The translations under genes and the position numbers were made by a program. A stretch of 64,000 bases of DNA from Escherichia coli (GTDB taxonomy: Bacteria > Pseudomonadota > Gammaproteobacteria > Enterobacterales > Enterobacteriaceae): NCBI RefSeq assembly GCF_001677475.2, contig NZ_CP015229.1; one strand, given 5' to 3'. Shown here one piece after another: positions 29,262 to 44,824 of this stretch. The notes beneath the pieces were generated by a model that had not been told where the DNA came from, ran no database searches, and saw nothing but the letters and a program-made list of their open reading frames with translations. Each line of letters opens with the position of its first letter. The first letter of the stretch is position 1.

Positions 29262-30119
29262 ATGAAAGCACCAGGCTTGCCCGCCGATCAACAATTTTTC
29301 GCCGATCTGTTCAGCGGCCTGGTGCTTAACCCGCAACTACTGGGGCGCGTCTGGTTTGCCAGCCAGCCTGCCTCGTTGCCGGTGGGCAGTTTATGTATTG
29401 ATTATCCCCGTCTGGATATCGTGCTGCGCGGCGAATACGGCAATCTGCTGGAAGCAAAGCAGCAACGTTTGGTGGAAGGAGAAATGCTGTTTATTCCGGC
29501 GCGCGCGGCTAATTTACCGGTCAACAACAAACCGGTGATGCTCTTAAGCCTGGTGTTCGCACCGACCTGGCTTGGGTTATCGTTTTACGATAGCCGCACC
29601 ACGTCGTTGTTGCACCCTGCTCGCCAGATCCAGCTTCCCAGCATGCAACGCGGTGAAGGTGAAGCGATGCTTACCGCCCTCACCCATCTTAGCCGTTCGC
29701 CGCTGGAGCAAAATATCATTCAGCCGCTGGTGTTAAGTTTGCTGCATCTTTGCCGTAACGTGGTGAATATGCCGCCGGGCAATTCGCAGCCGCGCGGCGA
29801 TTTTCTCTATCACAGCATTTGTAACTGGGTTCAGGATAATTATGCCCAGCCGCTCACCCGCGAGAGCGTGGCGCAGTTTTTTAATATCACGCCCAATCAT
29901 CTGTCAAAACTGTTTGCTCAGCATGGAACGATGCGTTTTATCGAATATGTGCGTTGGGTGCGAATGGCGAAGGCGAGGATGATTTTGCAGAAATATCATC
30001 TGTCGATTCATGAAGTGGCGCAGCGTTGCGGCTTTCCGGATAGCGACTATTTTTGTCGCGTCTTCCGGCGTCAGTTTGGCCTGACGCCGGGAGAGTACAG
30101 CGCCCGTTTTCAGGGCTAA
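29262..30119 (+). CDS. ypdC: AraC/XylS-family transcriptional regulator
   Basis: 285-aa ORF with C-terminal AraC-type double HTH (HLSKLF...FPDSDYFCRVFRRQFGLTPGEY). Confidence 0.8.
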   Translation: MKAPGLPADQQFFADLFSGLVLNPQLLGRVWFASQPASLPVGSLCIDYPRLDIVLRGEYGNLLEAKQQRLVEGEMLFIPARAANLPVNNKPVMLLSLVFAPTWLGLSFYDSRTTSLLHPARQIQLPSMQRGEGEAMLTALTHLSRSPLEQNIIQPLVLSLLHLCRNVVNMPPGNSQPRGDFLYHSICNWVQDNYAQPLTRESVAQFFNITPNHLSKLFAQHGTMRFIEYVRWVRMAKARMILQKYHLSIHEVAQRCGFPDSDYFCRVFRRQFGLTPGEYSARFQG

Positions 30120-30121
30120 CA

Positions 30122-32616
30122 TTAGAAGGTTAATTCCGTTTCCAGCAGAGTCAGGATGCTTTGTGCGTCTTGCGCGGCGAACAGCGACTGGCGGAAGTTT
30201 TTATTCACCAGTTTGCGCGCCAGCTGCGAGAAGACCTTCACATGGTTCATCCCTTCGCTAGCGTCCAGCGTCAGCATGATCACCAGTTCGACTTCGCCCA
30301 TTTCTGACTGCCAGTCAACCGGTTTCGCCAGCCGGGCAATGCTGATACTGGAATGACGGATCCACTGAGATTTGGTGTGCGGGATCGCCACGCCAAAACC
30401 AACGCCAGTAGTAACAATCTCTTCCCGTTGCCAGACATCCTCTTCCAGCTCGAACGGATGTTCAGTGCGCCCGTTAACGCCGAGGTTACCGCACAGGAAC
30501 TGGATCGCCTGCTCTTTATTGCTAAAGGCCTGATCAACGAAGATATTCTCCAGCGCCAACAATGGGTGAACGTCTTCTTCCGGCGTAAAGGCGGTGAGTA
30601 ACGCTTCAATTTCCTGCGCGCTGCGACATTCACACGCCTGACGTGCCAGTTCCCGACACGCCTCGCTATCCAGTTGACGAAGCTGGCTTTTCACCGCCGG
30701 AATGCGCGGGCTACTCATACTCAGCTCATCCAGGCCCAGCCCAAGCAGTAGCGGCAGATAACGGCTTTCACCGCCCAGTTCACCGCAAATGCCTACCCAT
30801 TTGCCCCGCTGATGCGCAGTGGTAACTATTTGCTGCAACATGCGCAGGAACGATGGCGTAATCGGGTTATATAGCGGCGATACGCGCGGGTTATTACGAT
30901 CGACCGCATACAGATACTGGGTCATATCGTTGGAGCCGATACTGAAGAAATCGACCTCATCGCAGAAGTGATCGATGATGTAGCACACCGACGGCACTTC
31001 CACCATGATACCCAGCGTAATCGTCTCTGCATGACGCAGGCCATCGCGCTTAAGCTCAACGATCGCTTTTTGGATCTCGCCCTTCACCCATAAGATCTGA
31101 TCGAGGCTGTGGACCATCGGGATCATCAACTGGGCGTTGCCGAAACTGGCGGCGCGCAAAATGGCCCGCAGTTGAGTGCGGAACAGGCCAGCAAATTCCG
31201 GGTAAATACGTACCGCGCGATAGCCGAGGAACGGGTTCTCTTCCTGGGGAATATTCAGATAAGGAATGCTTTTATCGCCGCCGATGTCCATTGTGCGGAA
31301 GATAATCGGCTTGTCGCCCGCTGCCAGTAGCACCTGCTGGTAGGCTTCAAATTGCTCCTGCTCGTCCGGCGCGCTGTCGCGATCCATATAGAGCATTTCG
31401 GTACGGAACAGCCCGACGCCTTCCGCGCCGTTGGCAAACGCGCCAGGCGCTTCCAGAGCGGTGCCAATATTCGCCGCGATATCAATACGCTTGTTATCAC
31501 GGGAATAAGCCAGCTGCGCGGCAGCCTGCGCCTGTTGTTTTTGGCGTTTATCTGCCAGCGTCTGCGCGACCTGATAATAACCGCTCACCGCGTCATTCGG
31601 GTTAATCGCCAGCACGCCGCACTGGGCGTCAAGCACTGCAGGTTGCCCGGCATAGCGCGCGATCGCATCCAGCGGCAGGCCGCTCAAAACCGGGATCGCC
31701 GAGGCACGGGCCAGAATCAGGGTATGCGAGGTGCGCCCGGTTTTCTCCAGAATCATACCTGCAAGATTTTTTAAATCGAGGCTCAAAAACTGGCTTGGGG
31801 TTAAATCCTCGGCCACCAGAATAGTCGGTTTTTCCAGCACCAGATTGTTGCGCGGCTTCAGTTCCGGCCAGGTGATATGCAGCAACTGTTCGCTAACATC
31901 GCGAATGTCGCTAACACGTTCGCGCAGATAATCGCTGGCAGAAGCAGAAAGCTTGGCGCAAACCTGCTCCATATTGCTGATGATCGCCGCCCCAGTCCCT
32001 GATGCTGTTCCGCCATAAGGCGACGGATATTGCCCGCGAACTCATCATCCTGAATCAGCGACAAATGGGCGCTGAGGATGGTTTTGCTTTCGCCGTCACG
32101 CTCGCGCAACTGCTGGTTCAGTTGCTCGGCAAGCGTTGCCAGGCTGTGCTCCAGCCAGGTGGAATCTTGCGCACTGGCCGGGATCGCCCGATAACTGTCG
32201 AGGCTGTCGCTCTGTAACAGGGTCAGTGTACCCACGCCGACGCCGCTTGCCAGCACATTGCCGTACAGTAAATCCGGGTTAAGGCGGCTTAATGAACGCG
32301 GCAGCGGATGCGCCGTCAGTTCTGCCTGCGTCGGCTGAACGCTGTCGCTGTCGATAAAGCGCACCTGGATGTACTCTTCCAGCACGCGCCGCGCCTGCTC
32401 TTCATCGCTGCCGCTAATGTTCAGGCTGCAACTGTCATTAAATAAGGTGCCGGTGCCAATCAGCGCCAGTGAACTTTTGGCATCGGCCTTTGCGTTCTGG
32501 CGATGGTTAATAAAAGTGATTTCGCTTTGCCACTGGCTGCACTGCTCTTTAAGTTCCCACGCCGGACGAGCATGTAGACCGTTAGGCAAAGGACAGAGAA
32601 ATTGAATCGTTAACAT
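30122..32616 (-). pseudogene. fryA: PTS multiphosphoryl transfer protein FryA (HPr-EI-EIIA fusion), apparently disrupted by a 1-bp frameshift
   Basis: Two overlapping minus-strand ORFs in different frames (32616-31858, HPr plus EI N-terminus; 31972-30122, EI His domain GRTSHTLILARAS plus EIIA). Frames rejoin if one G is added to the GGGG run at plus-strand C-tract 31990-31993. Confidence 0.6.
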
Positions 32617-32640
32617 AACCGCTCCGGGTTAATCAGGAGA

Positions 32641-33678
32641 TCATCTGAAATCCGTCAGTTGAACAACCGTCTCACGCGTAAGACGTTGAATAAGGGCAGA
32701 TAAAAGCTGCTGCATCTGCAAGATGTCGCGGCAGTCGGCAATCGATGCGGCGCAATGTCCATGGCGGGTTGCTGGCCCCATCACCACTGTGGGTACGCCA
32801 GTACCGGTTAAGTGAACCGCTCCACCGTCCGTGCCGCCGTTACTGAACATATCCGCCTGTAACGGCACGCCAATTTCTGCCGCCACGGTTTCGATCCAGG
32901 CGGTGAGTTTTGGCGGCGCAATCAGTGACTTGTCGCTTAACACCAGCATCGGGCCGTTACCAATCTGGCGATGGTTAGCCGTGCCATAATCAAAGTTTTT
33001 CGCCCAGCAGGCGGTATCAAGCACAATGGCGACGTCCGGCGACACCGCGCGGGTGGCAGTTTGCCCGCCGCGTAATCCCACCTCTTCGCTCGAACTTGCC
33101 ACCAGCCACACTTCCGCAGGCAGTTCGGCGTCGTGCAGCTCACGTAGTAACGTCACCAGCAGATAGCAACCGAGGCGGTCATCAAAAGCTTTCCCCATCA
33201 CTCGCTGGTGGGGGAGAACCTGAAAAGTAGTATCAAACGTGACGCGATCGCCTGGGCGAATTCCCGCCTGCATCACTTCGTCATACGAGCGCGCACCAAT
33301 GTCCACGCGCATGGCGCTGACATCATTCCCCTGCCGGTCGCCGTCAAGCAGGCCGGGAATTTTGCACTCTTTACGGGTGGTGATGCGCACCGGCTGCAAC
33401 TGGCGGGCAGCCATGCGCACGTTGCCAACCGGCAGCACGTCAATAGCGCCTTCGCGGGAGATGCTGCGCACCATAAATCCCACTTCGTCCATATGCGCAC
33501 AGATCATCACTTTCGGACCTGTCGATTCATTGAGGCGGATCAGCACCGATCCCAGACCATCAAATCGCACTTCTTTTTGCAGGCGATCCGCTTCTTCCAG
33601 CAGGATCTGCCGCACTTCCTGTTCCGAGGAGGCGATCGCATCGGCCTCGCTCAACGCTTTTAATAGCGATAAATCCAT
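32641..33678 (-). CDS. ypdE: M42-family aminopeptidase
   Basis: 345-aa ORF with M42 metal-binding architecture; 1-bp overlap with ypdF. Confidence 0.85.
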
Positions 33679-34763
33679 TATGCCTCTCCCGTGAGCAACA
33701 CTGTTTTCGGCATGGCGTAGAGCACTTCTGCGCCTTGCGGGGTAACCAGCACAACATCTTCGATGCGCACGCCCCCTTGCCCTGGCAAATAAATCCCCGG
33801 CTCTACGGTCAGTAACATGCCAGGCTGTAGCGTCGTGGTGTCCCTCGGTGAAAAACGCGGATCTTCATGGACTTCAATGCCGATAGCATGACCGGTGTTG
33901 TGGCCAAAATAGTCGCCATAACCGGCTTCTGTAATGACCCGGCGCGCGGCATCGTCAACCTGCTGGCAGCGCACGCCGGGGCGAATCGCGGAGATTGCCG
34001 CGAGCTGTGCCTGCAGGACAATCTGATAGACGTTAAACAGCGGGTGAGATTCGGCGCTCACCCCTTCGCCATTCACCAGCAAGGTGCGCGTCATATCAGA
34101 GCAGTAGCCCTGATATAGCGCACCGAAATCGAGAGTGACAAACTCGCCCGCTGCAACAATCTTGTCGCTGGCTTTGCCGTGCGGCAGCGCCCCACGCCAG
34201 CCACTGGCGACAATGGTGTCAAAAGAGGCTTTTTCTGCGCCCTGCTGGCGCATAAACCACTCCAGTTCAGCGGCTATCTCGCGCTCGCTCATCCCCGCCT
34301 GAATAAAGCGGCGAATATGCTCCGCTCCGCGATCGGCAATCCCACAGGCGAGGCGGATTTTCTCCACCTCCTCTGGCGTTTTGATTTGCCGCAGCACATC
34401 CGGCGTGGCGCTTACCAGTTTCGCATTGAGTTCAGACTGCCAGCGGTGCGCGGTTTCCCAACTCACCTGCTGGCCTTCAAAACCGAGCGTTTGCAACTGC
34501 TCATCGGCAATGATTTGCCTGACGACGGTTGTAAGCGTGTGCGTCGCGTCAAGCAAATGCAGCGGGTAGCCTTGCGTGCGAGCTTCCACATCCGCGTAAT
34601 AGCGCGAATCCACCAGAATGTGCGCACTTTCACGGCTAATCACCACATAACCTGATCCGGTGGAGATCCCCAGATGCGGCTGTTTGTTCTGCCGTGAGGA
34701 GAGAAGCACTGCATCCAGTTGTTGCGCCTTAAGCCAGTCGCGCAGCGAAGCGAGTAATGTCAT
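33678..34763 (-). CDS. ypdF: M24B-family Xaa-Pro aminopeptidase
   Basis: 361-aa ORF with creatinase/prolidase-fold C-terminal domain ([13 protein letters not shown]). Confidence 0.85.
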
Positions 34764-34777
34764 CTGGATTTTCCTTC

Positions 34778-36025
34778 TTACAGGCTATCGATTAACAATT
34801 TACCTTTGCGGAACATCATCAGACGCAGGAACACCACCATCAGCGCAGTTATGACTGCCCCCAGCGCGATCCCCGCCATATAGACGCCCAGGTTAGTGAC
34901 CAGCGGCCATGCCCAGATAGCGGATTCCGGGAACCATTGCACTGCGCCCAGCCAGACAGCGGCGGTTGAGCCGACAATAGCACCGACCATATACGACGGA
35001 ATGGCGGTGATGGGACTTTCCAGCGCAAACGGAATCGCACCTTCACTGATCCCCATAAACGCCAGGAACATCGCGGTTTTACCCTGCGGATAAAGTTGGG
35101 CGTTGAACAGACGTTTGCCGGTTAAACGGCGGTCGATAATGGTCGCCAGACCCAGACCAATCGGCGGAATAACAATAGCGATGGAACGCGCGGTAACCGG
35201 TAATACGTGGTCAGTGGTAAAGCTGAAGGCAACGAAACCAGCTGCTTTGTTGATCGGGCCACCAAGGTCGATTGCTGTCGCCGCGGCGATCCCCATCGCG
35301 TACATCAGCGCGCCCTTCTCACCTGCGGCAGTCAGCACGGTACGGATACCGCCGTTGATCCAGCCACCAAAGGGGGTGATGACGTAGTACATCGCCAACA
35401 TGACAAAAATGGCGGAAAGAATCGGTAGCAAAAATGTGGTTTTGAACGCTAACAGGAATTCCGGTAACTGGATTTTCTGGTTCATCCACTTCACAAGGTA
35501 ACCAGCAACGATAGAAATAATCAGGGCACCAATGAAGGTGGACGGCACCGGCGAAGAGGTCGCCCATTGCATAGTGCTGGGATCGAAGTTCAGCAGTTGC
35601 GTCGGCTGGGTAGACATCAACCCGCCGATAAAACCAGCCGGGAACGCCAGTTTGCCACCGATAGAGTTCGCCACAAATGCAGCAAACATCGGAATGGCAA
35701 AACCAAACAACACGCCGCCGAAGGACTGCGACAACCAGGCAAATTTCAGTAAGGAGAGGTCGAAACCGGAGAATTTCCCGCTATTAAGAGCATCCATGAT
35801 GCCGATATCAGCAGGAATTTTAAGCCAGCTATAAGCAATCAGCTGGCTGAAAGCGAGGATCACACCGCCCATAATTAAGGTCGGCACCATGCGTGAAATC
35901 CCTGACATCACATGCTGCGGGAGTTCACCCCAGAAGCTGCTTTTAGAGGCCTGCGGATTCTTAACTGCCGCTGCCGCACCGGATGCGCCAGGCACAACGG
36001 TTGCACTGCGTTTTTTAATGGCCAT
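34778..36025 (-). CDS. fryC: PTS fructose-like EIIC permease
   Basis: 415-aa polytopic membrane ORF of the PTS EIIC fructose family. Confidence 0.85.
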
Positions 36026-36592: not shown

Positions 36593-37558
36593 TTACAGAA
36601 TGTGCCCTAAGGTCTGGCGTAAATGTGCACCGGAACCGAGAAGACCCGGATTGTCATGGACGATGAGATACACCGGAATATCATGGACATATTCTTTAAA
36701 GCGCCCTTTATCTTCAAATGCGGCACGGAAACCAGAGGCTTTGAAGAACTCAAGGAAGCGCGGCACGATACCGCCCGCAATAAACACGCCGCCAAATGTC
36801 CCTAGATTGAGCGCCAGATTGCCGCCAAAACGGCCCATAATGACGCAAAACAGCGACAACGCGCGGCGGCAATCGGTGCAGCTGTCAGCCAGCGCGCGTT
36901 CGGTAATATCTTTTGGCTTGAGATTTTCTGGCAGGCGGTTGTCGGCTTTAACAATTGCGCGATACAAATTCACCAGCCCAGGGCCAGAAAGCACGCGTTC
37001 CGCCGAAACATGGCCAATTTCCGCACGCAGTATTTCGAGGATAATGGCCTCTTCTTCACTATTCGGCGCAAAATCAACGTGACCGCCTTCGCCTGGCAAG
37101 CTTACCCAACGCTTATCGACATGGACCAGATGTGCAACCCCAAGCCCCGTTCCGGCACCGTAAACCGCAATAGGCTTACCTTCGACCGGTTCTGCGCCAC
37201 CAAACTGAATCAGATGCTCTTTTTTCAGCATCGGGATCGCCATCGATACAGCGGTAAAATCGTTAATAATTTCCAGATGGCTAAAACCGAGATTCTTTTT
37301 CATTTCGGCAATTGAGAACGCCCAGGTATGGTTGGTCATTGCCACCCAGTCACCGGTAATTGGGCAAGCGATGGCAATACAGCCGTCTTTCACCTCGACC
37401 TTATGTTCTTCAAGATAAACGCGAATGACCGCTTCGAGGCTGGGGTAATCAAGCCCTGAATAGGTCTTAGCCTGCGAGATTTCACCACTGGCAATATCAC
37501 ACAGAGCAAGACGTGCGTTGGTGCCGCCCACATCACCGACTAATGCATACTTTGTCAT
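36593..37558 (-). CDS. glk: Glucokinase (ROK-like)
   Basis: 321-aa [22 protein letters not shown]... with glucokinase ATP-binding N-terminus. Confidence 0.9.
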
Positions 37559-37761
37559 TCTTCAACTGCTCCGCTAAAGTCAAAATAATTCTTTCTCACA
37601 CTGTAAATTCCTGGGGGCATAACAACAACGCCGGAAAGGCAGGCTCCCTGTAAATATCGATCTGGGTCACACAATTACTTTATCGTTTCAGCACCAATTG
37701 CAGCGATGCCTTTTTGCAAGCTGGGCAAACTAAGTATCTGACCCCGCATAAGGAATAGAAC

Positions 37762-39018
37762 ATGCTCCATCCGCGAGCCAGAACCATGTTGTTATTATCG
37801 CTCCCCGCCGTGGCAATTGGGATTGCGTCCAGTCTTATTCTGATTGTGGTGATGAAAATCGCCTCGGTATTACAGAATTTGCTCTGGCAACGACTGCCGG
37901 GAACTCTGGGGATAGCCCAGGATTCACCTTTCTGGATCATCGCCATATTAACGCTAACAGGTATTGCGGTGGGGTTGGTTATCCGTTTCAGCCAGGGGCA
38001 TGCTGGACCAGACCCCGCCTGTGAACCGCTGATCGGCGCACCGGTTCCGCCCTCTGCGCTACCAGGACTTATCGTAGCATTAATTCTCGGTCTTGCTGGC
38101 GGCGTCAGCCTGGGGCCGGAACATCCGATCATGACCGTCAATATCGCCCTTGCCGTCGCCATTGGCGCTCGTCTGTTACCGCGCGTCAACCGAATGGAGT
38201 GGACTATTTTAGCCTCTGCCGGAACCATCGGCGCGCTGTTTGGCACACCTGTTGCGGCGGCGTTGATATTTTCGCAAACCTTAAATGGCAGTAATGAAGT
38301 GCCGCTATGGGATCGACTCTTTGCGCCGTTAATGGCAGCGGCGGCTGGTGCGCTGACGACAAGTCTATTTTTCCACCCCCATTTTTCGCTGCCCATTGCG
38401 CATTACGGACAGATGCAGATGGCAGACATTATCAGCGGTGCGATTGTAGCGGCGATTGCCATCGCTGCGGGGATGGTCGCCGTATGGTGTCTGCCACGGT
38501 TGCACGCAATGATGCATCAGATTAAAAACCCTGTGCTTATGCTCGGGGTTGGCGGGTTTATTCTCGGTATTTTGGGGGTTATTGGTGGGCCGGTTTCACT
38601 GTTTAAAGGGCTGGATGAGATGCAGCAAATGGTGATGAATCAGGCTTTCAGCACCAGTGATTACTTTTTACTGGCGGTGATTAAGCTCGCCGCTCTGGTC
38701 ATTGCCGCCGCCAGCGGGTTTCGTGGCGGGCGAATCTTCCCGGCAGTGTTTGTTGGCGTGGCGTTAGGTTTGATGCTACATGAACACGTTCCCGCAGTCC
38801 CGGCGGCAATTACTGTCTCCTGCGCTATTCTCGGTATGGTACTGGTGGTAACGCGCGATGGCTGGTTAAGCCTGTTTATGGCGGCAGTCGTTGTACCTGA
38901 TACCAATCTGCTACCGCTACTTTGTATCGTTATGCTTCCGGCATGGCTATTGCTGGCTGGCAAACCGATGATGATTGTGAATCGCCCGAAGCAGCAACCA
39001 CCCCACGATAATCTTTAG
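37762..39018 (+). CDS. yfeO: ClC-family voltage-gated chloride channel-like membrane protein
   Basis: 418-aa polytopic ORF with ClC-like GxxxGPxxP motifs (GVSLGPEHP). Confidence 0.85.
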
Positions 39019-39132
39019 CAAAAAATGCTCTCCATCATGATTTAAGAGTTATGGCGATGAAACGGGGCTTTACCTCCCCGTAATATTGCGTTAACAGGCC
39101 GCTGACGGCTTCGATCGTGAAGGAGAATATCA

Positions 39133-39459
39133 ATGTTCAGGTCACTGTTTCTGGCGGCCGCCCTGATGGCTTTTACCCCGCTTGCGGCAAACGCAGGTGA
39201 AATTACCCTACTGCCATCAATCAAATTACAAATTGGCGATCGCGATCATTACGGTAATTACTGGGACGGTGGTCATTGGCGCGACCGTGATTACTGGCAT
39301 CGTAATTACGAATGGCGTAAAAACCGCTGGTGGCGTCACGATAATGGCTACCACCGTGGCTGGGATAAGCGTAAAGCGTATGAGCGTGGCTATCGTGAAG
39401 GCTGGCGCGACCGTGATGATCATCGAGGGAAAGGCCGTGGACACGGACATCGTCATTAA
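39133..39459 (+). CDS. ypeC: Secreted low-complexity protein (DUF2502), rich in Trp/Arg/His/Asp/Gly
   Basis: 108-aa ORF with signal peptide [21 protein letters not shown] followed by repeats such as [34 protein letters not shown]. Confidence 0.75.
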
Positions 39460-39482
39460 ACACATCCACCAATGGAGCACGA

Positions 39483-39575
<93 letters not shown>

Positions 39576-39600
39576 TGTGCCTGGTACGACGCCAGTTGAA

Positions 39601-40848
<1,248 letters not shown>

Positions 40849-40851
40849 CTA

Positions 40852-40873
40852 AAACATAGCCTTTGCTATGTTT
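40852..40873. promoter_or_regulatory. MntR operator palindrome AAACATAGC-N4-GCTATGTTT in mntH leader
   Basis: Near-perfect inverted repeat 13 bp upstream of mntH start codon; matches the MntR box reported for mntH. Confidence 0.6.
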
Positions 40874-40887
40874 CATGCTATGCCAAA

Positions 40888-40912
40888 CGAGAATGATTAT
40901 CAAATTCATTTG
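40888..40912. promoter_or_regulatory. Fur-box-like sequence in mntH promoter
   Basis: Minus-strand CAAATGAATTTGATAATCATTCTCG resembles Fur consensus GATAATGATAATCATTATC. Confidence 0.45.
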
Positions 40913-41174: not shown

Positions 41175-42377
41175 ATGGACCGCGTCCTTCATTTTGTACT
41201 GGCACTTGCCGTTGTTGCGATTCTCGCACTGCTGGTAAGCAGCGACCGCAAAAAAATTCGTATCCGTTATGTTATTCAACTGCTTGTTATCGAAGTGTTA
41301 CTGGCGTGGTTCTTCCTGAACTCCGACGTTGGTTTGGGCTTCGTGAAAGGCTTCTCCGAAATGTTCGAAAAACTGCTCGGATTTGCCAACGAAGGGACTA
41401 ACTTCGTCTTTGGTAGCATGAATGATCAAGGCCTGGCATTCTTCTTCCTGAAAGTGCTGTGCCCAATCGTCTTTATCTCTGCACTGATCGGTATTCTCCA
41501 GCACATTCGCGTGTTGCCGGTGATTATCCGCGCAATTGGTTTCCTGCTCTCCAAAGTCAACGGTATGGGCAAACTGGAATCCTTTAACGCCGTCAGCTCC
41601 CTGATTCTGGGTCAGTCTGAAAACTTTATTGCCTATAAAGATATCCTTGGCAAAATCTCCCGTAACCGTATGTACACCATGGCAGCAACGGCGATGTCCA
41701 CCGTTTCTATGTCCATCGTTGGTGCATACATGACCATGCTGGAGCCGAAATATGTCGTTGCAGCGCTGGTACTGAATATGTTCAGCACATTTATCGTGCT
41801 GTCGCTGATCAACCCGTACCGTGTTGATGCCAGTGAAGAAAACATTCAGATGTCCAACCTGCACGAAGGTCAGAGCTTCTTCGAAATGCTGGGTGAATAC
41901 ATTCTGGCAGGTTTCAAAGTTGCCATTATCGTTGCCGCAATGCTGATCGGCTTTATCGCCCTGATCGCGGCGCTGAACGCACTGTTTGCCACCGTGACTG
42001 GCTGGTTTGGCTACAGCATCTCCTTCCAGGGCATCCTGGGCTACATCTTCTATCCGATTGCATGGGTGATGGGTGTTCCGTCCAGCGAAGCACTGCAGGT
42101 GGGCAGTATCATGGCGACCAAACTGGTTTCCAACGAGTTCGTTGCGATGATGGATCTGCAGAAAATTGCTTCCACGCTCTCTCCGCGTGCTGAAGGCATC
42201 ATCTCTGTGTTCCTGGTTTCCTTCGCTAACTTCTCTTCAATCGGGATTATCGCAGGTGCAGTTAAAGGCCTGAATGAAGAGCAAGGTAACGTGGTTTCTC
42301 GCTTCGGTCTGAAGCTGGTTTACGGCTCTACCCTGGTGAGTGTGCTGTCTGCGTCAATCGCAGCACTGGTGCTGTAA
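41175..42377 (+). CDS. nupC: Nucleoside:H+ symporter (CNT family)
   Basis: Start placed at [14 protein letters not shown] (400 aa); track ORF starts 39 nt upstream. Confidence 0.9.
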
Positions 42378-42427: not shown

Positions 42428-44617
42428 TTAATCAGCTAATGGCTGCGGGCGACCAATCAGATACCCTTGCAGATATTGCACCCCGAGCTTATGCAATAGC
42501 GCCTGTTGCTGTTGCGTCTCGACAAACTCCGCGACCACACTCAATGACTTCGCTTTCGCCAGATCGGTAATTGATCTCACAATCATCGCATCCAGCGTGT
42601 TCGTGACAATATCTTTCACAAAGACGCCATCAATTTTGATGATATCAGCCTGCAAACGCTTTAACCGTTCGTAGTTGGCATATCCGGTGCCAAAGTCATC
42701 AATCGCAATCCGGAAACCAAACTTATGCAGCTGCTCGATGTTGTACATGCTGCTTTCTGCGTTAGAAAACGCCTGCTCCTCGGTGATCTCAAGAATGACC
42801 GCCTGCGGGGAGATGTGATAACGCTTAAACAGACGAATAATCCGCCCGGCAATATTCTTTTGCAGCAGCGTGAGCGGCATTAAATTGACTGAAAAGCGCG
42901 GTCCTTTTTTGTCGCAAGGGTGTGTTGCCAGCCACTTCAACAAGGATTCCAGCACTTGCAAATCAAAACGCGCGCTAAGGTTAAACTGAGCAATAAGGGG
43001 CAGAAACTTATCCGGGGTCATAATGCCGCCGTCATACTTCAGTCGCGCGAGGATCTCATCATAACCTTCACCCTCTTTGTTGCGAATTGGCTGGGCGTAG
43101 AGCAGCAAATCACCCTGATCTAACGCCGTGCGAATGGTATTCAGCAATAGCACCTGTTTAGTGGTCTGCCCGGAAACCATCTCCTCTCTGCTATCCAGCG
43201 CCAGCACATGATGATGTGCACAGGATTGCTCCGCCAGCCAGCTTAACTGCCCCAACAAGGGTTGCAGGGTTTCCTGATTTCCATCAAAACGCCCCCAGGC
43301 AGCACCATAGCCCATATCCAGCCCGGTATTGTTCCAGTGAATTTGCCGACTATTCAGGATGTTAACCATATGCTGGAGTCGTCCTTCCGTTTCCGGTCCG
43401 CTCAGCACTAACAGCAGTTCACTACCCGGCAATTGATACAACTTTTCGTTTTCCTGCATCAACGGCAGCAGCGTACGGTAAATTGAGCGGATACAGTGAA
43501 CGCGCATCATTAACCCGTAATGACGACTCATAAACTCAAGATTATCAATGCGCAGGCAGCAAAAACTCTTGCCCGCCTCTTGCTCCGGCGCTTGTTCTAA
43601 CGCACGAAAGTTGGGTAGGAGCGTTAACGGATCGGTCAGCGCCTGCAAATGCCAGCGGCGATTAAGCCATTCACTGCGATGATAAATGCGCACCATATAG
43701 AGCAGGCAAACGCTAAAGGAAATCAGCACCGCAAGAATAAATGCCAGCGAATATTCGGTTTCCACCCCTTGCAAAAAGTTCTGGTTGTAATTCAGCAGGC
43801 AAAGCGTTGAAACAGCCCAGGTGAGATTTAAAAACGGATAGCGAAGCTTACCGACCCCGAGGGTAAAGATGATGAAGAAAACGGGTACCAGGTAACCGGC
43901 AATAAAGTCGTTTTCATAAGGTGTGCACAACAGAAGTAGCAGCACGCTTAACGCTGCCAGCCAGCTTAAGGTAAATGCGCGTTTCTCTTTGCCCAACGAC
44001 GGAGCGATATCCCTGCGCCACAATATCTGCGCAAAGTGGGGACTTACAATCATGCGAGTGAGATAGTAGAAAAGCATGTTGTAAATCAGCACAGCGGTGA
44101 AAAGGCTTAGCAAATCAACGACCGTGAAAATGGCATCCGCATCGCCGAAAAAGGTGGATATCTTTAGCGGGAAATCAAAGAAGCTCCCCACAAGATACAT
44201 GCTGCATTTGATGCCGATCGGCGTCACCAAACCAAGCCAGAACAGACGTTGCCAGACATATCGGCTGGTCAATCCATAACGCCAACGCGTCCCCAGCTGC
44301 CAGCGTAATATTGCGCAGGCACACAACACGACAAACGTCTGGCTGCCGAGCATGACCGCAGTCTGTAAAAAAGAGAGATGAAAGTTCCACAGATTGGTGC
44401 AAAACATCCCGCATAAAACGGGAACGACACCGCGCCAGCCAAAGATAAACAAGATTGATAGCATTACGCACAGTGGCATCCACGCCAGAAAGATATAACT
44501 GGAATGGATAATGGCAAGTGGCGAAATAAAACGGGATAGCTGAATAAGTACCACGGTGAGCGTAAACGCTAGTGTGAATATCTTGATATTTTTTATCAGG
44601 TTATGCTCCACAAACAT
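42428..44617 (-). CDS. pdeA: c-di-GMP phosphodiesterase (MASE1 membrane sensor, degenerate GGDEF, EAL)
   Basis: Start placed at MFVEHNLIKNIK (about 729 aa); C-terminal EAL domain motifs (EITE, DDFGTGY). Confidence 0.85.
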   Translation of the reverse strand: MFVEHNLIKNIKIFTLAFTLTVVLIQLSRFISPLAIIHSSYIFLAWMPLCVMLSILFIFGWRGVVPVLCGMFCTNLWNFHLSFLQTAVMLGSQTFVVLCACAILRWQLGTRWRYGLTSRYVWQRLFWLGLVTPIGIKCSMYLVGSFFDFPLKISTFFGDADAIFTVVDLLSLFTAVLIYNMLFYYLTRMIVSPHFAQILWRRDIAPSLGKEKRAFTLSWLAALSVLLLLLCTPYENDFIAGYLVPVFFIIFTLGVGKLRYPFLNLTWAVSTLCLLNYNQNFLQGVETEYSLAFILAVLISFSVCLLYMVRIYHRSEWLNRRWHLQALTDPLTLLPNFRALEQAPEQEAGKSFCCLRIDNLEFMSRHYGLMMRVHCIRSIYRTLLPLMQENEKLYQLPGSELLLVLSGPETEGRLQHMVNILNSRQIHWNNTGLDMGYGAAWGRFDGNQETLQPLLGQLSWLAEQSCAHHHVLALDSREEMVSGQTTKQVLLLNTIRTALDQGDLLLYAQPIRNKEGEGYDEILARLKYDGGIMTPDKFLPLIAQFNLSARFDLQVLESLLKWLATHPCDKKGPRFSVNLMPLTLLQKNIAGRIIRLFKRYHISPQAVILEITEEQAFSNAESSMYNIEQLHKFGFRIAIDDFGTGYANYERLKRLQADIIKIDGVFVKDIVTNTLDAMIVRSITDLAKAKSLSVVAEFVETQQQQALLHKLGVQYLQGYLIGRPQPLAD

Positions 44618-44824
44618 GAGTACACTACTCTCACTGATCGGGGTTTTCAGGCACACAAATAATAAGTTTATTCGCATCGCGAAGCAAACAGGGGCCAGCC
44701 TGTTGCCTATTTTTCATCCAATGATGCTTTCACCAGGCGGCGCTAACCCGGACGTAGACTGTATTACAAAAGCGGCAAAAAGCAGAGACAAAAAACCCCC
44801 GCTTTGCAGCGAGGGTTGGAAATT

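Follow-up and report, generated by a model that had tools for sequence, protein, structure and literature searches.

YpeC, encoded in the window analysed here (64,000 nucleotides of Escherichia coli contig NZ_CP015229.1), is best accounted for, in a reading to which we give an even chance, as a Sec-exported, soluble periplasmic envelope-stress protein whose aromatic core would serve as a binder or scaffold and whose His-rich tail would serve as a metal or proton sponge, apart from the neighbouring mntH unit. Earlier work had already recorded the gene, its family and the regulons to which it belongs; what is new here is descriptive, namely the core-plus-tail architecture, the lack of true repeats, the persistence of His-richness over charge in the tail, and the lack of a regulatory link to mntH. 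By published data, ypeC is among the genes most strongly induced in the Rcs envelope-stress response as well as a direct MarA/SoxS target, and knowledge of the ligand of its product would fill a gap in how the periplasm of enterobacteria is protected under antibiotic, antimicrobial-peptide and barrier stress.

The ypeC reading frame is intact (ATG to TAA, 108 amino acids plus stop) and is preceded by a Shine-Dalgarno sequence, AAGGAG, 8 nt 5′ of the start; the encoded protein is 100% identical to that of E. coli K-12. Pfam placed it in DUF2502 at 85.4 bits against a gathering cut-off of 27, with profile positions 1–90 of 90 covered. Family assignments other than DUF2502 were rejected, as Pfam gave none else even at E ≤ 5, and an NCBIfam search with YpeC matched no model. 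Gene order around the locus, glk (−), yfeO (+), ypeC (+), mntH (−), nupC (+) and pdeA (−), is that of K-12, and both identity and position between yfeO/gpr and mntH–nupC assign the protein to the YpeC orthologous group of Enterobacteriaceae. Current annotation reads “DUF2502 domain-containing protein YpeC” and nothing further, and in the literature searched, papers naming ypeC, b2390, DUF2502 or yaaX give transcriptome or ChIP data and do not study the protein itself; the initial annotation was thus right to call its function uncharacterised. Coordinates of the gene, of the parts of its product and of the surrounding elements are collected in Table 1.

Table 1 Coordinates in the window of ypeC, the segments of its product and the flanking elements
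Feature	Position	Strand	Basis
ypeC coding sequence, DUF2502 family	39133..39459	+	ORF list; Pfam PF10697, E=3.1e-24; protein identity to K-12 b2390
Sec-type signal peptide, residues 1–21, predicted cleavage between ANA and GE (mature start 39196)	39133..39195	+	Read from sequence
Mature N-terminal core, about residues 22–71: strand, core motif, Trp/Arg hairpin YEWR..RWWR	39196..39345	+	Conservation, AlphaFold2
C-terminal basic His-rich tail, about residues 72–108, ends GRGHGHRH, predicted disordered	39346..39456	+	pLDDT <50
Marbox GCATTTTTTGCTAAA (minus-strand reading), overlaps yfeO stop codon	39014..39028	-	Equal to published MarA/SoxS 15-mer
Conserved block GAGTYnnnnnCGATG within TTAAGAGTTATGGCGATG, candidate activator (RcsB?) site	39044..39059	+	Phylogenetic footprint
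Candidate -10, TAATAT	39081..39086	+	GTAATAT conserved in six genera
Weak candidate -35, ATGAAA	39057-39062	+	Accompanies candidate -10
REP pair (BIME) between converging ypeC and mntH	39484..39573	.	Inverted repeats, REP pattern, naRNA4, fold

The initial annotation described the product as secreted, and the parts of a Sec-type signal peptide are indeed discernible in its N-terminus: an n-region with R3, a hydrophobic core, and A-N-A at −3/−1 before G22, a layout that was judged by eye from the sequence and from homolog alignments, without a dedicated predictor, and that is kept in YpeC homologs in two alignments. No twin-Arg motif is present in the N-terminus, and YpeC has no lipobox (L-x-x-C) and zero Cys in the whole protein, so it is not a lipoprotein. 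The mature protein (87 aa) consists of 18% R, 15% G, 11.5% D, 10% H, 9% W and 8% Y; the enrichment of W, R and H is significant for each (binomial P 6e-5 to 2e-4), and W, R, H, Y, D and G together make up 72% of residues compared to about 25% expected from approximate E. coli background frequencies. With a net charge of about +7 at pH 7, a pI of about 10 and a GRAVY of −2.1, YpeC has the basic, aromatic and His-capped composition originally attributed to it, and the strings then quoted, together with the terminal GHGHRH, occur verbatim. Their description as repeats does not survive comparison with chance: the best internal split self-alignment scored 38, where shuffles averaged 44.7, with 165 of 200 composition-preserving shuffles matching or beating it, and internal repeats were rejected.

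When 1.84 billion representative proteins were searched with a profile, 115 clusters were returned at E ≤ 1e-3, and a word-indexed search returned 278 close relatives; by these searches DUF2502 is a small, narrow family. Named members come from Enterobacterales (Escherichia, Citrobacter, Klebsiella, Enterobacter, Cronobacter, Pantoea, Mixta and others), and a few Betaproteobacteria (Jeongeupia, Azonexus) carry the domain as well. Family-wide features are a signal peptide, a short strand with alternating hydrophobics, and then the core motif G-D-R-D-x2-G-x-Y-W-D-G-x2-W-R-D-x2-[YW]-W, within which G35, G41, Y43 and W44 are invariant and D38, D45, G46, W49 and W55 are at least 90% conserved across 30 diverse members. 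YpeC carries the core signature that we derived from the family alignment (a signal peptide followed by G-[DS]-[RQ]-[DN]-x2-G-x-Y-W-D-G-x2-W); a looser pattern, G-x-[RQK]-[DN]-x2-G-x-[YFW]-W, is found in 205 of the 231 retrieved proteins, and the YWDG unit is doubled in 16 of them.

Past about residue 70, DUF2502 proteins are hypervariable in length and sequence between genera. Tails are of the (GH)n type in most Enterobacteriaceae; elsewhere they are HDHD, Pro-rich or Gln-rich, or end in CPPGQAKKGNC, and about a fifth of members have one of the last three kinds in place of a His-rich tail. Among 62 non-redundant mature sequences, 43 have a His-rich tail, defined by at least four His among the final 15 positions, and His has a median of 12% of residues. 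Net charge in this set spans −14 to +12, with 11 members neutral or acidic and the core about neutral. His-richness, not charge, is the property of the tail that persists across DUF2502. In one subgroup (P0166, P0173, P0185, P0189 and P0204; e.g., L005 6001-6375), which includes betaproteobacterial proteins (Jeongeupia, Azonexus), a C-terminal CPPGQAKKG[NR]C replaces the His-rich end; Pfam recognised only DUF2502 in members with CPPGQAKKGNC tails and did not recognise the Cys motif. Several repeats of the large Ig-like repeat proteins P0182 and P0227–P0229 (Big_1 and others) weakly match the DUF2502 profile, over the strand and the D-x-x-G-N turn. These were rejected as DUF2502 homologs, being Big_1 or Ig-domain proteins, and the match is probably due to a strand-turn-strand element that is common in proteins, not to shared descent.

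The division into core and tail recurs in structure prediction. AlphaFold2 was run twice, independently, once with 17 full-length sequences and once with 62 mature ones, and in both runs pLDDT was 78–89 for precursor residues of about 30–71 (79–89 for the core motif) and below 50 for the last ~36 residues of YpeC; the whole-model mean of 58–62 corresponds to medium confidence. The predicted core comprises short strands, one helix and the YEWR/RWWR hairpin, and is nearly without aliphatic residues past the first strand. No sequence or fold match to YpeC was found in the PDB. Based on these models the core is probably a folded mini-domain, and the conserved motif together with the pLDDT profile thus resolves the stretch first labelled low-complexity into halves, a conserved mini-domain and a tail predicted to be disordered: that label does not suit residues 35–55, which form an invariant family motif and are predicted to be folded. 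On a bolder construction, which we consider unlikely, the core would be an undescribed periplasmic mini-fold in which Trp/Tyr–Arg cation-π stacking largely stands in for an aliphatic core and which, together with the His tail, would form a two-module envelope-stress effector, buffering transition metals or protons that leak in upon failure of the outer membrane and redundant with YaaX, the second DUF2502 protein of E. coli; such redundancy, if true, would explain the lack of an assigned phenotype.

Published data connect ypeC to envelope stress and to drug and oxidant stress. Inhibition of LolCDE raised ypeC 42–60x, which puts it among the genes that responded most, beside osmB, ycfJ, bdm and wca genes (PMC5105897), and disruption of rcsB in an O157:H7 strain lowered it 23.7x (PMC5343319). 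Acid shift induces the gene as well (PMC2270276), its expression rises during RP4 conjugation, and it recurs in multi-stress meta-analyses; a DUF2502 gene (ypeC or yaaX) was induced in soil at 4 °C upon long incubation, and a Serratia DUF2502 promoter serves as an Rcs reporter. Furthermore, GCATTTTTTGCTAAA is reported as the MarA site in E. coli on the strength of ChIP-seq and of binding in vitro at 0.3 μM (PMC5684230), and SoxS was located at this sequence in Salmonella by ChIP-seq and at ypeC in E. coli by ChIP-exo (PMC10268841). The suggestion that YpeC might be an envelope-interacting peptide, offered earlier as an alternative to metal binding, is consistent with this published regulation by MarA/SoxS, LolCDE inhibition and rcsB.

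Candidate counterparts of this regulation lie in the 114-nt yfeO–ypeC spacer, which is 95.6% identical to K-12 and thereby more similar than the ypeC coding sequence itself (93.6%). At 39014–39028 the window reads TTTAGCAAAAAATGC, the reverse complement of the marbox. Footprint alignment showed that this site is kept across six genera, and it is retained in Citrobacter, Klebsiella, Enterobacter and Cronobacter, where gpr rather than yfeO lies upstream; in this genome the marbox is putatively functional. The conserved block downstream of it (Table 1) holds a TAAGA half-site and is a candidate RcsB site; matches of RcsB type upstream of ypeC are weak, scoring 6/8 against the generic RcsB pattern and, at another position, 8/14 against the RcsAB box. 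Two TA[AG][GA]-like pentamers 7 nt apart occur both at 39043–39054 upstream of ypeC (TAAGA-GT-TATGG) and upstream of yaaX (TAGAG-AT-TAGGA; L017 1639-1652), and may represent a shared activator site, perhaps for RcsB. A consensus scan identified no canonical σ70 promoter upstream of ypeC, as expected for an activator-dependent promoter, and no intrinsic terminator.

The ypeC leader contains a sequence, CGATCGTGAAGGAGA, that is invariant in the six-genera footprint and might be a site of post-transcriptional control. Two hairpins can be drawn in this region. One (ACGGGG-CTTTACCT-CCCCGT, 39062–39081) lies between the candidate −35 and −10 elements and shows an apparently compensatory G-to-A/C-to-T change in Enterobacter; the other (GGCCGC-TGAC-GGCT, 39097–39110) lies in the leader and has a changed stem in other genera. 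A hairpin in the 5′ UTR as a special structure was rejected, since its folding energy (MFE −11 kcal/mol) is that of shuffled sequence (z=0).

Taken as a mechanism, the preferred reading runs as follows. ypeC is transcribed from its own upstream region, as published for E. coli or Salmonella, and would be deployed upon attack on the barrier or the envelope, under Rcs and Mar/Sox conditions; the product, predicted to be exported by Sec, would reside as a soluble protein in the periplasm. There it would act as a stoichiometric binder and not as an enzyme, with the aromatic core providing a conserved recognition or scaffold module, while the His-rich tail, judging from its composition, would bind Zn, Ni, Cu and/or protons weakly and at several places at once. 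Where the outer membrane is compromised and metals or protons enter the periplasm, the tail could then act as a sponge or buffer. YpeC showed no homology to any metal-binding family, nothing resembling an operator for Fur, MntR, Zur or NikR lies upstream of its gene, and what it shares with metal-binding proteins is a GHGHRH-type tail; composition lends weak support to metal binding. The family data bear on the chemistry of the tail, as retention of His in 43 of 62 members, despite charges anywhere between −14 and +12, speaks for chemistry that depends on His and less for plain binding as a polycation. Acidic HDHD and basic GHGH tails would share an affinity for divalent transition metals or protons and not for polyanions, and such a shared affinity favours the role of the tail as a sponge or buffer.

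The same observations bear on a tenable though unlikely alternative, in which YpeC is a polycationic Trp/Arg binder resembling an endogenous cationic amphiphile. From within the periplasm it would bind LPS, anionic phospholipid or peptidoglycan so as to stabilise the envelope or to compete against cationic antimicrobial peptides. The charge, pI, Trp and Arg content of YpeC, as well as its induction with a regulon that senses envelope damage, are what such a binder would call for, but the neutral or acidic members (11 of 62, down to −14) and the about neutral core are at odds with it, YpeC has no amphipathic segment, and many of the Trp and Arg residues fall within the predicted-folded segment and may therefore be structural. 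Rather improbable, in our view, is a generic periplasmic hydrophilin, that is, a disordered protectant with no specific ligand, assisting bulk hydration or preventing aggregation in osmotic, acid or desiccation stress. Although the GRAVY of −2.1, the glycine content of about 15%, the predicted disorder of the tail, and induction by acid shift, by many other stresses and (for ypeC or yaaX) in cold soil would all fit, the sharply conserved motif with its invariant G, Y and W residues and confidently predicted fold points to a specific structure.

A partnership with MntH, in which YpeC would be a periplasmic metal binder coupled in role and regulation to the transporter, for example in Mn/Fe delivery or buffering, we regard as very unlikely. 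The initial annotation had drawn attention to the adjacent Mn/Fe-regulated mntH locus and to a REP element in between. The REP element is there, as two REPs in opposite orientation (39484–39518 and 39544–39573; 2 matches to the REP pattern compared to 0.2 expected) that fold with an MFE of −62.3 kcal/mol (z=−5.9 vs shuffles) and give partial, sub-threshold Rfam matches to the REP-derived naRNA4, beyond which Rfam matched nothing. The argument from the neighbourhood is not supported, as ypeC and mntH converge, their 3′ ends facing, and the metal-responsive sites lie on the far side of mntH. Both the perfect MntR box AAACATAGCAAAGGCTATGTTT (22/22, 40852–40873) and a Fur-like box (15/19, 40889–40907) stand upstream of mntH, at a distance of 1.4 kb from ypeC. 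Upstream of ypeC, the search for Fur-, MntR-, Zur- and NikR-like sites gave none, the best matches being at chance level. Partnership could still draw on the His-rich terminus of YpeC, on the frequency of such tails in the family and on the order gpr–ypeC–mntH–nupC, an old arrangement which is kept even for homologs ~38% identical to YpeC. Against it stand the convergent arrangement without a shared promoter, the location of the MntR and Fur boxes, one Citrobacter locus in which PTS genes rather than mntH lie downstream, the unrelated contexts of yaaX and of the betaproteobacterial members, and the papers found, which report no metal-regulated expression of ypeC. His/Gly tails also suit Ni, Zn and Cu better than Mn. 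No recurrent operon partner was found in distant DUF2502 loci. We read the adjacency of ypeC and mntH in these sequences as conserved synteny and not as functional coupling, and the best explanation places ypeC outside the Mn/Fe-regulated mntH unit. A conserved small ORF of 29 aa, ypeD, lies over the mntH start (40820–40909, −) and is identical to K-12.

That ypeC encodes no functional protein, being an ORF that arose by chance or a low-complexity peptide in decay, is scarcely credible and already effectively refuted: long ORFs in four frames and an extreme composition might suggest it, but the 21 DNA differences from K-12 correspond to 21 synonymous and 0 non-synonymous codons, the protein belongs to a Pfam family with the relatives and clusters counted above, the Shine-Dalgarno sequence and 5′ UTR are conserved, and published expression is very strong and regulated. 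Relative to the neighbouring genes, in which 138 codon differences from K-12 are synonymous and 21 non-synonymous, this absence of non-synonymous change is mildly unusual (P about 0.05); ypeC is under purifying selection. The three further long ORFs over the gene (39182–39568) comprise one of 117 aa in another plus-strand frame and two on the minus strand, of 115 aa and 84 aa; most likely they arise from its CGN/GAY/TGG/CAY codon composition, which is poor in stops.

The locus as a whole (36593–40839) diverges very unevenly from K-12, with identities of 98.8% for glk, 96.4% for mntH, 93.6% for ypeC and 90.9% for yfeO. Across 5,426 complete E. coli genomes, the best identity over yfeO–ypeC was 92.9%, while the flank at 30000–36000 reached 97.2%. 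By this pattern, the source looks like an Escherichia lineage close to but outside E. coli, or else like one whose yfeO segment was imported locally or evolves fast. IS186C, which lies between nupC and pdeA in K-12 (L001 8274-9618), is absent in the window, where nupC ends at 42377 and is directly followed by pdeA (42428–44677, −). Outside Escherichia (L007–L010, L002 and L006), ipdC, encoding an indolepyruvate decarboxylase-like TPP enzyme, and gpr, encoding an aldo-keto reductase, are situated between yfeO and ypeC; as Escherichia lacks both, its yfeO stop codon abuts the ypeC marbox.

Among known proteins, YaaX (b0005) is the nearest to YpeC, being 62% identical to it over residues 2–66 (the signal peptide and core) and, like it, an exported, stand-alone member of the same Pfam family with a tail rich in His, in this case His/Pro-rich. 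Three studies place YaaX in the Rcs regulon. The two differ in that the tail sequences are unrelated, that yaaX lies in the context thrC–yaaX–yaaA, and that, unlike for ypeC, no marbox is reported in the papers found; YaaX is equally uncharacterised, so no function can be transferred from it to YpeC. The compositional palette of W, R, H, G and Y and the positive charge are shared with indolicidin, tritrpticin, lactoferricin and the histatins. Unlike those antimicrobial peptides, YpeC is about 87 aa long, is retained by its producer and contains a conserved motif that is predicted to fold, and as DUF2502 members can be strongly acidic, the likeness to cationic antimicrobial peptides is compositional only. 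SilE/PcoE, ZraP and the His-rich regions of ZinT/ZnuA, periplasmic metal sponges and stress proteins, are, like YpeC, small, exported, partly disordered, His-rich and stress-induced, and it is their mode of action that is proposed here for the YpeC tail. YpeC differs from them in having no sequence or profile similarity (Pfam found only DUF2502, and the PDB no sequence or fold match), no Met-rich or LTxxQ motifs and no known metal-dependent regulation. Lastly, OsmB, YcfJ, Bdm, YmgD/YmgG, Ivy, MliC and Spy form a set of small exported stress proteins that are co-induced with ypeC and unrelated to it in sequence, of which Ivy and MliC target lysozyme and Spy is a chaperone.
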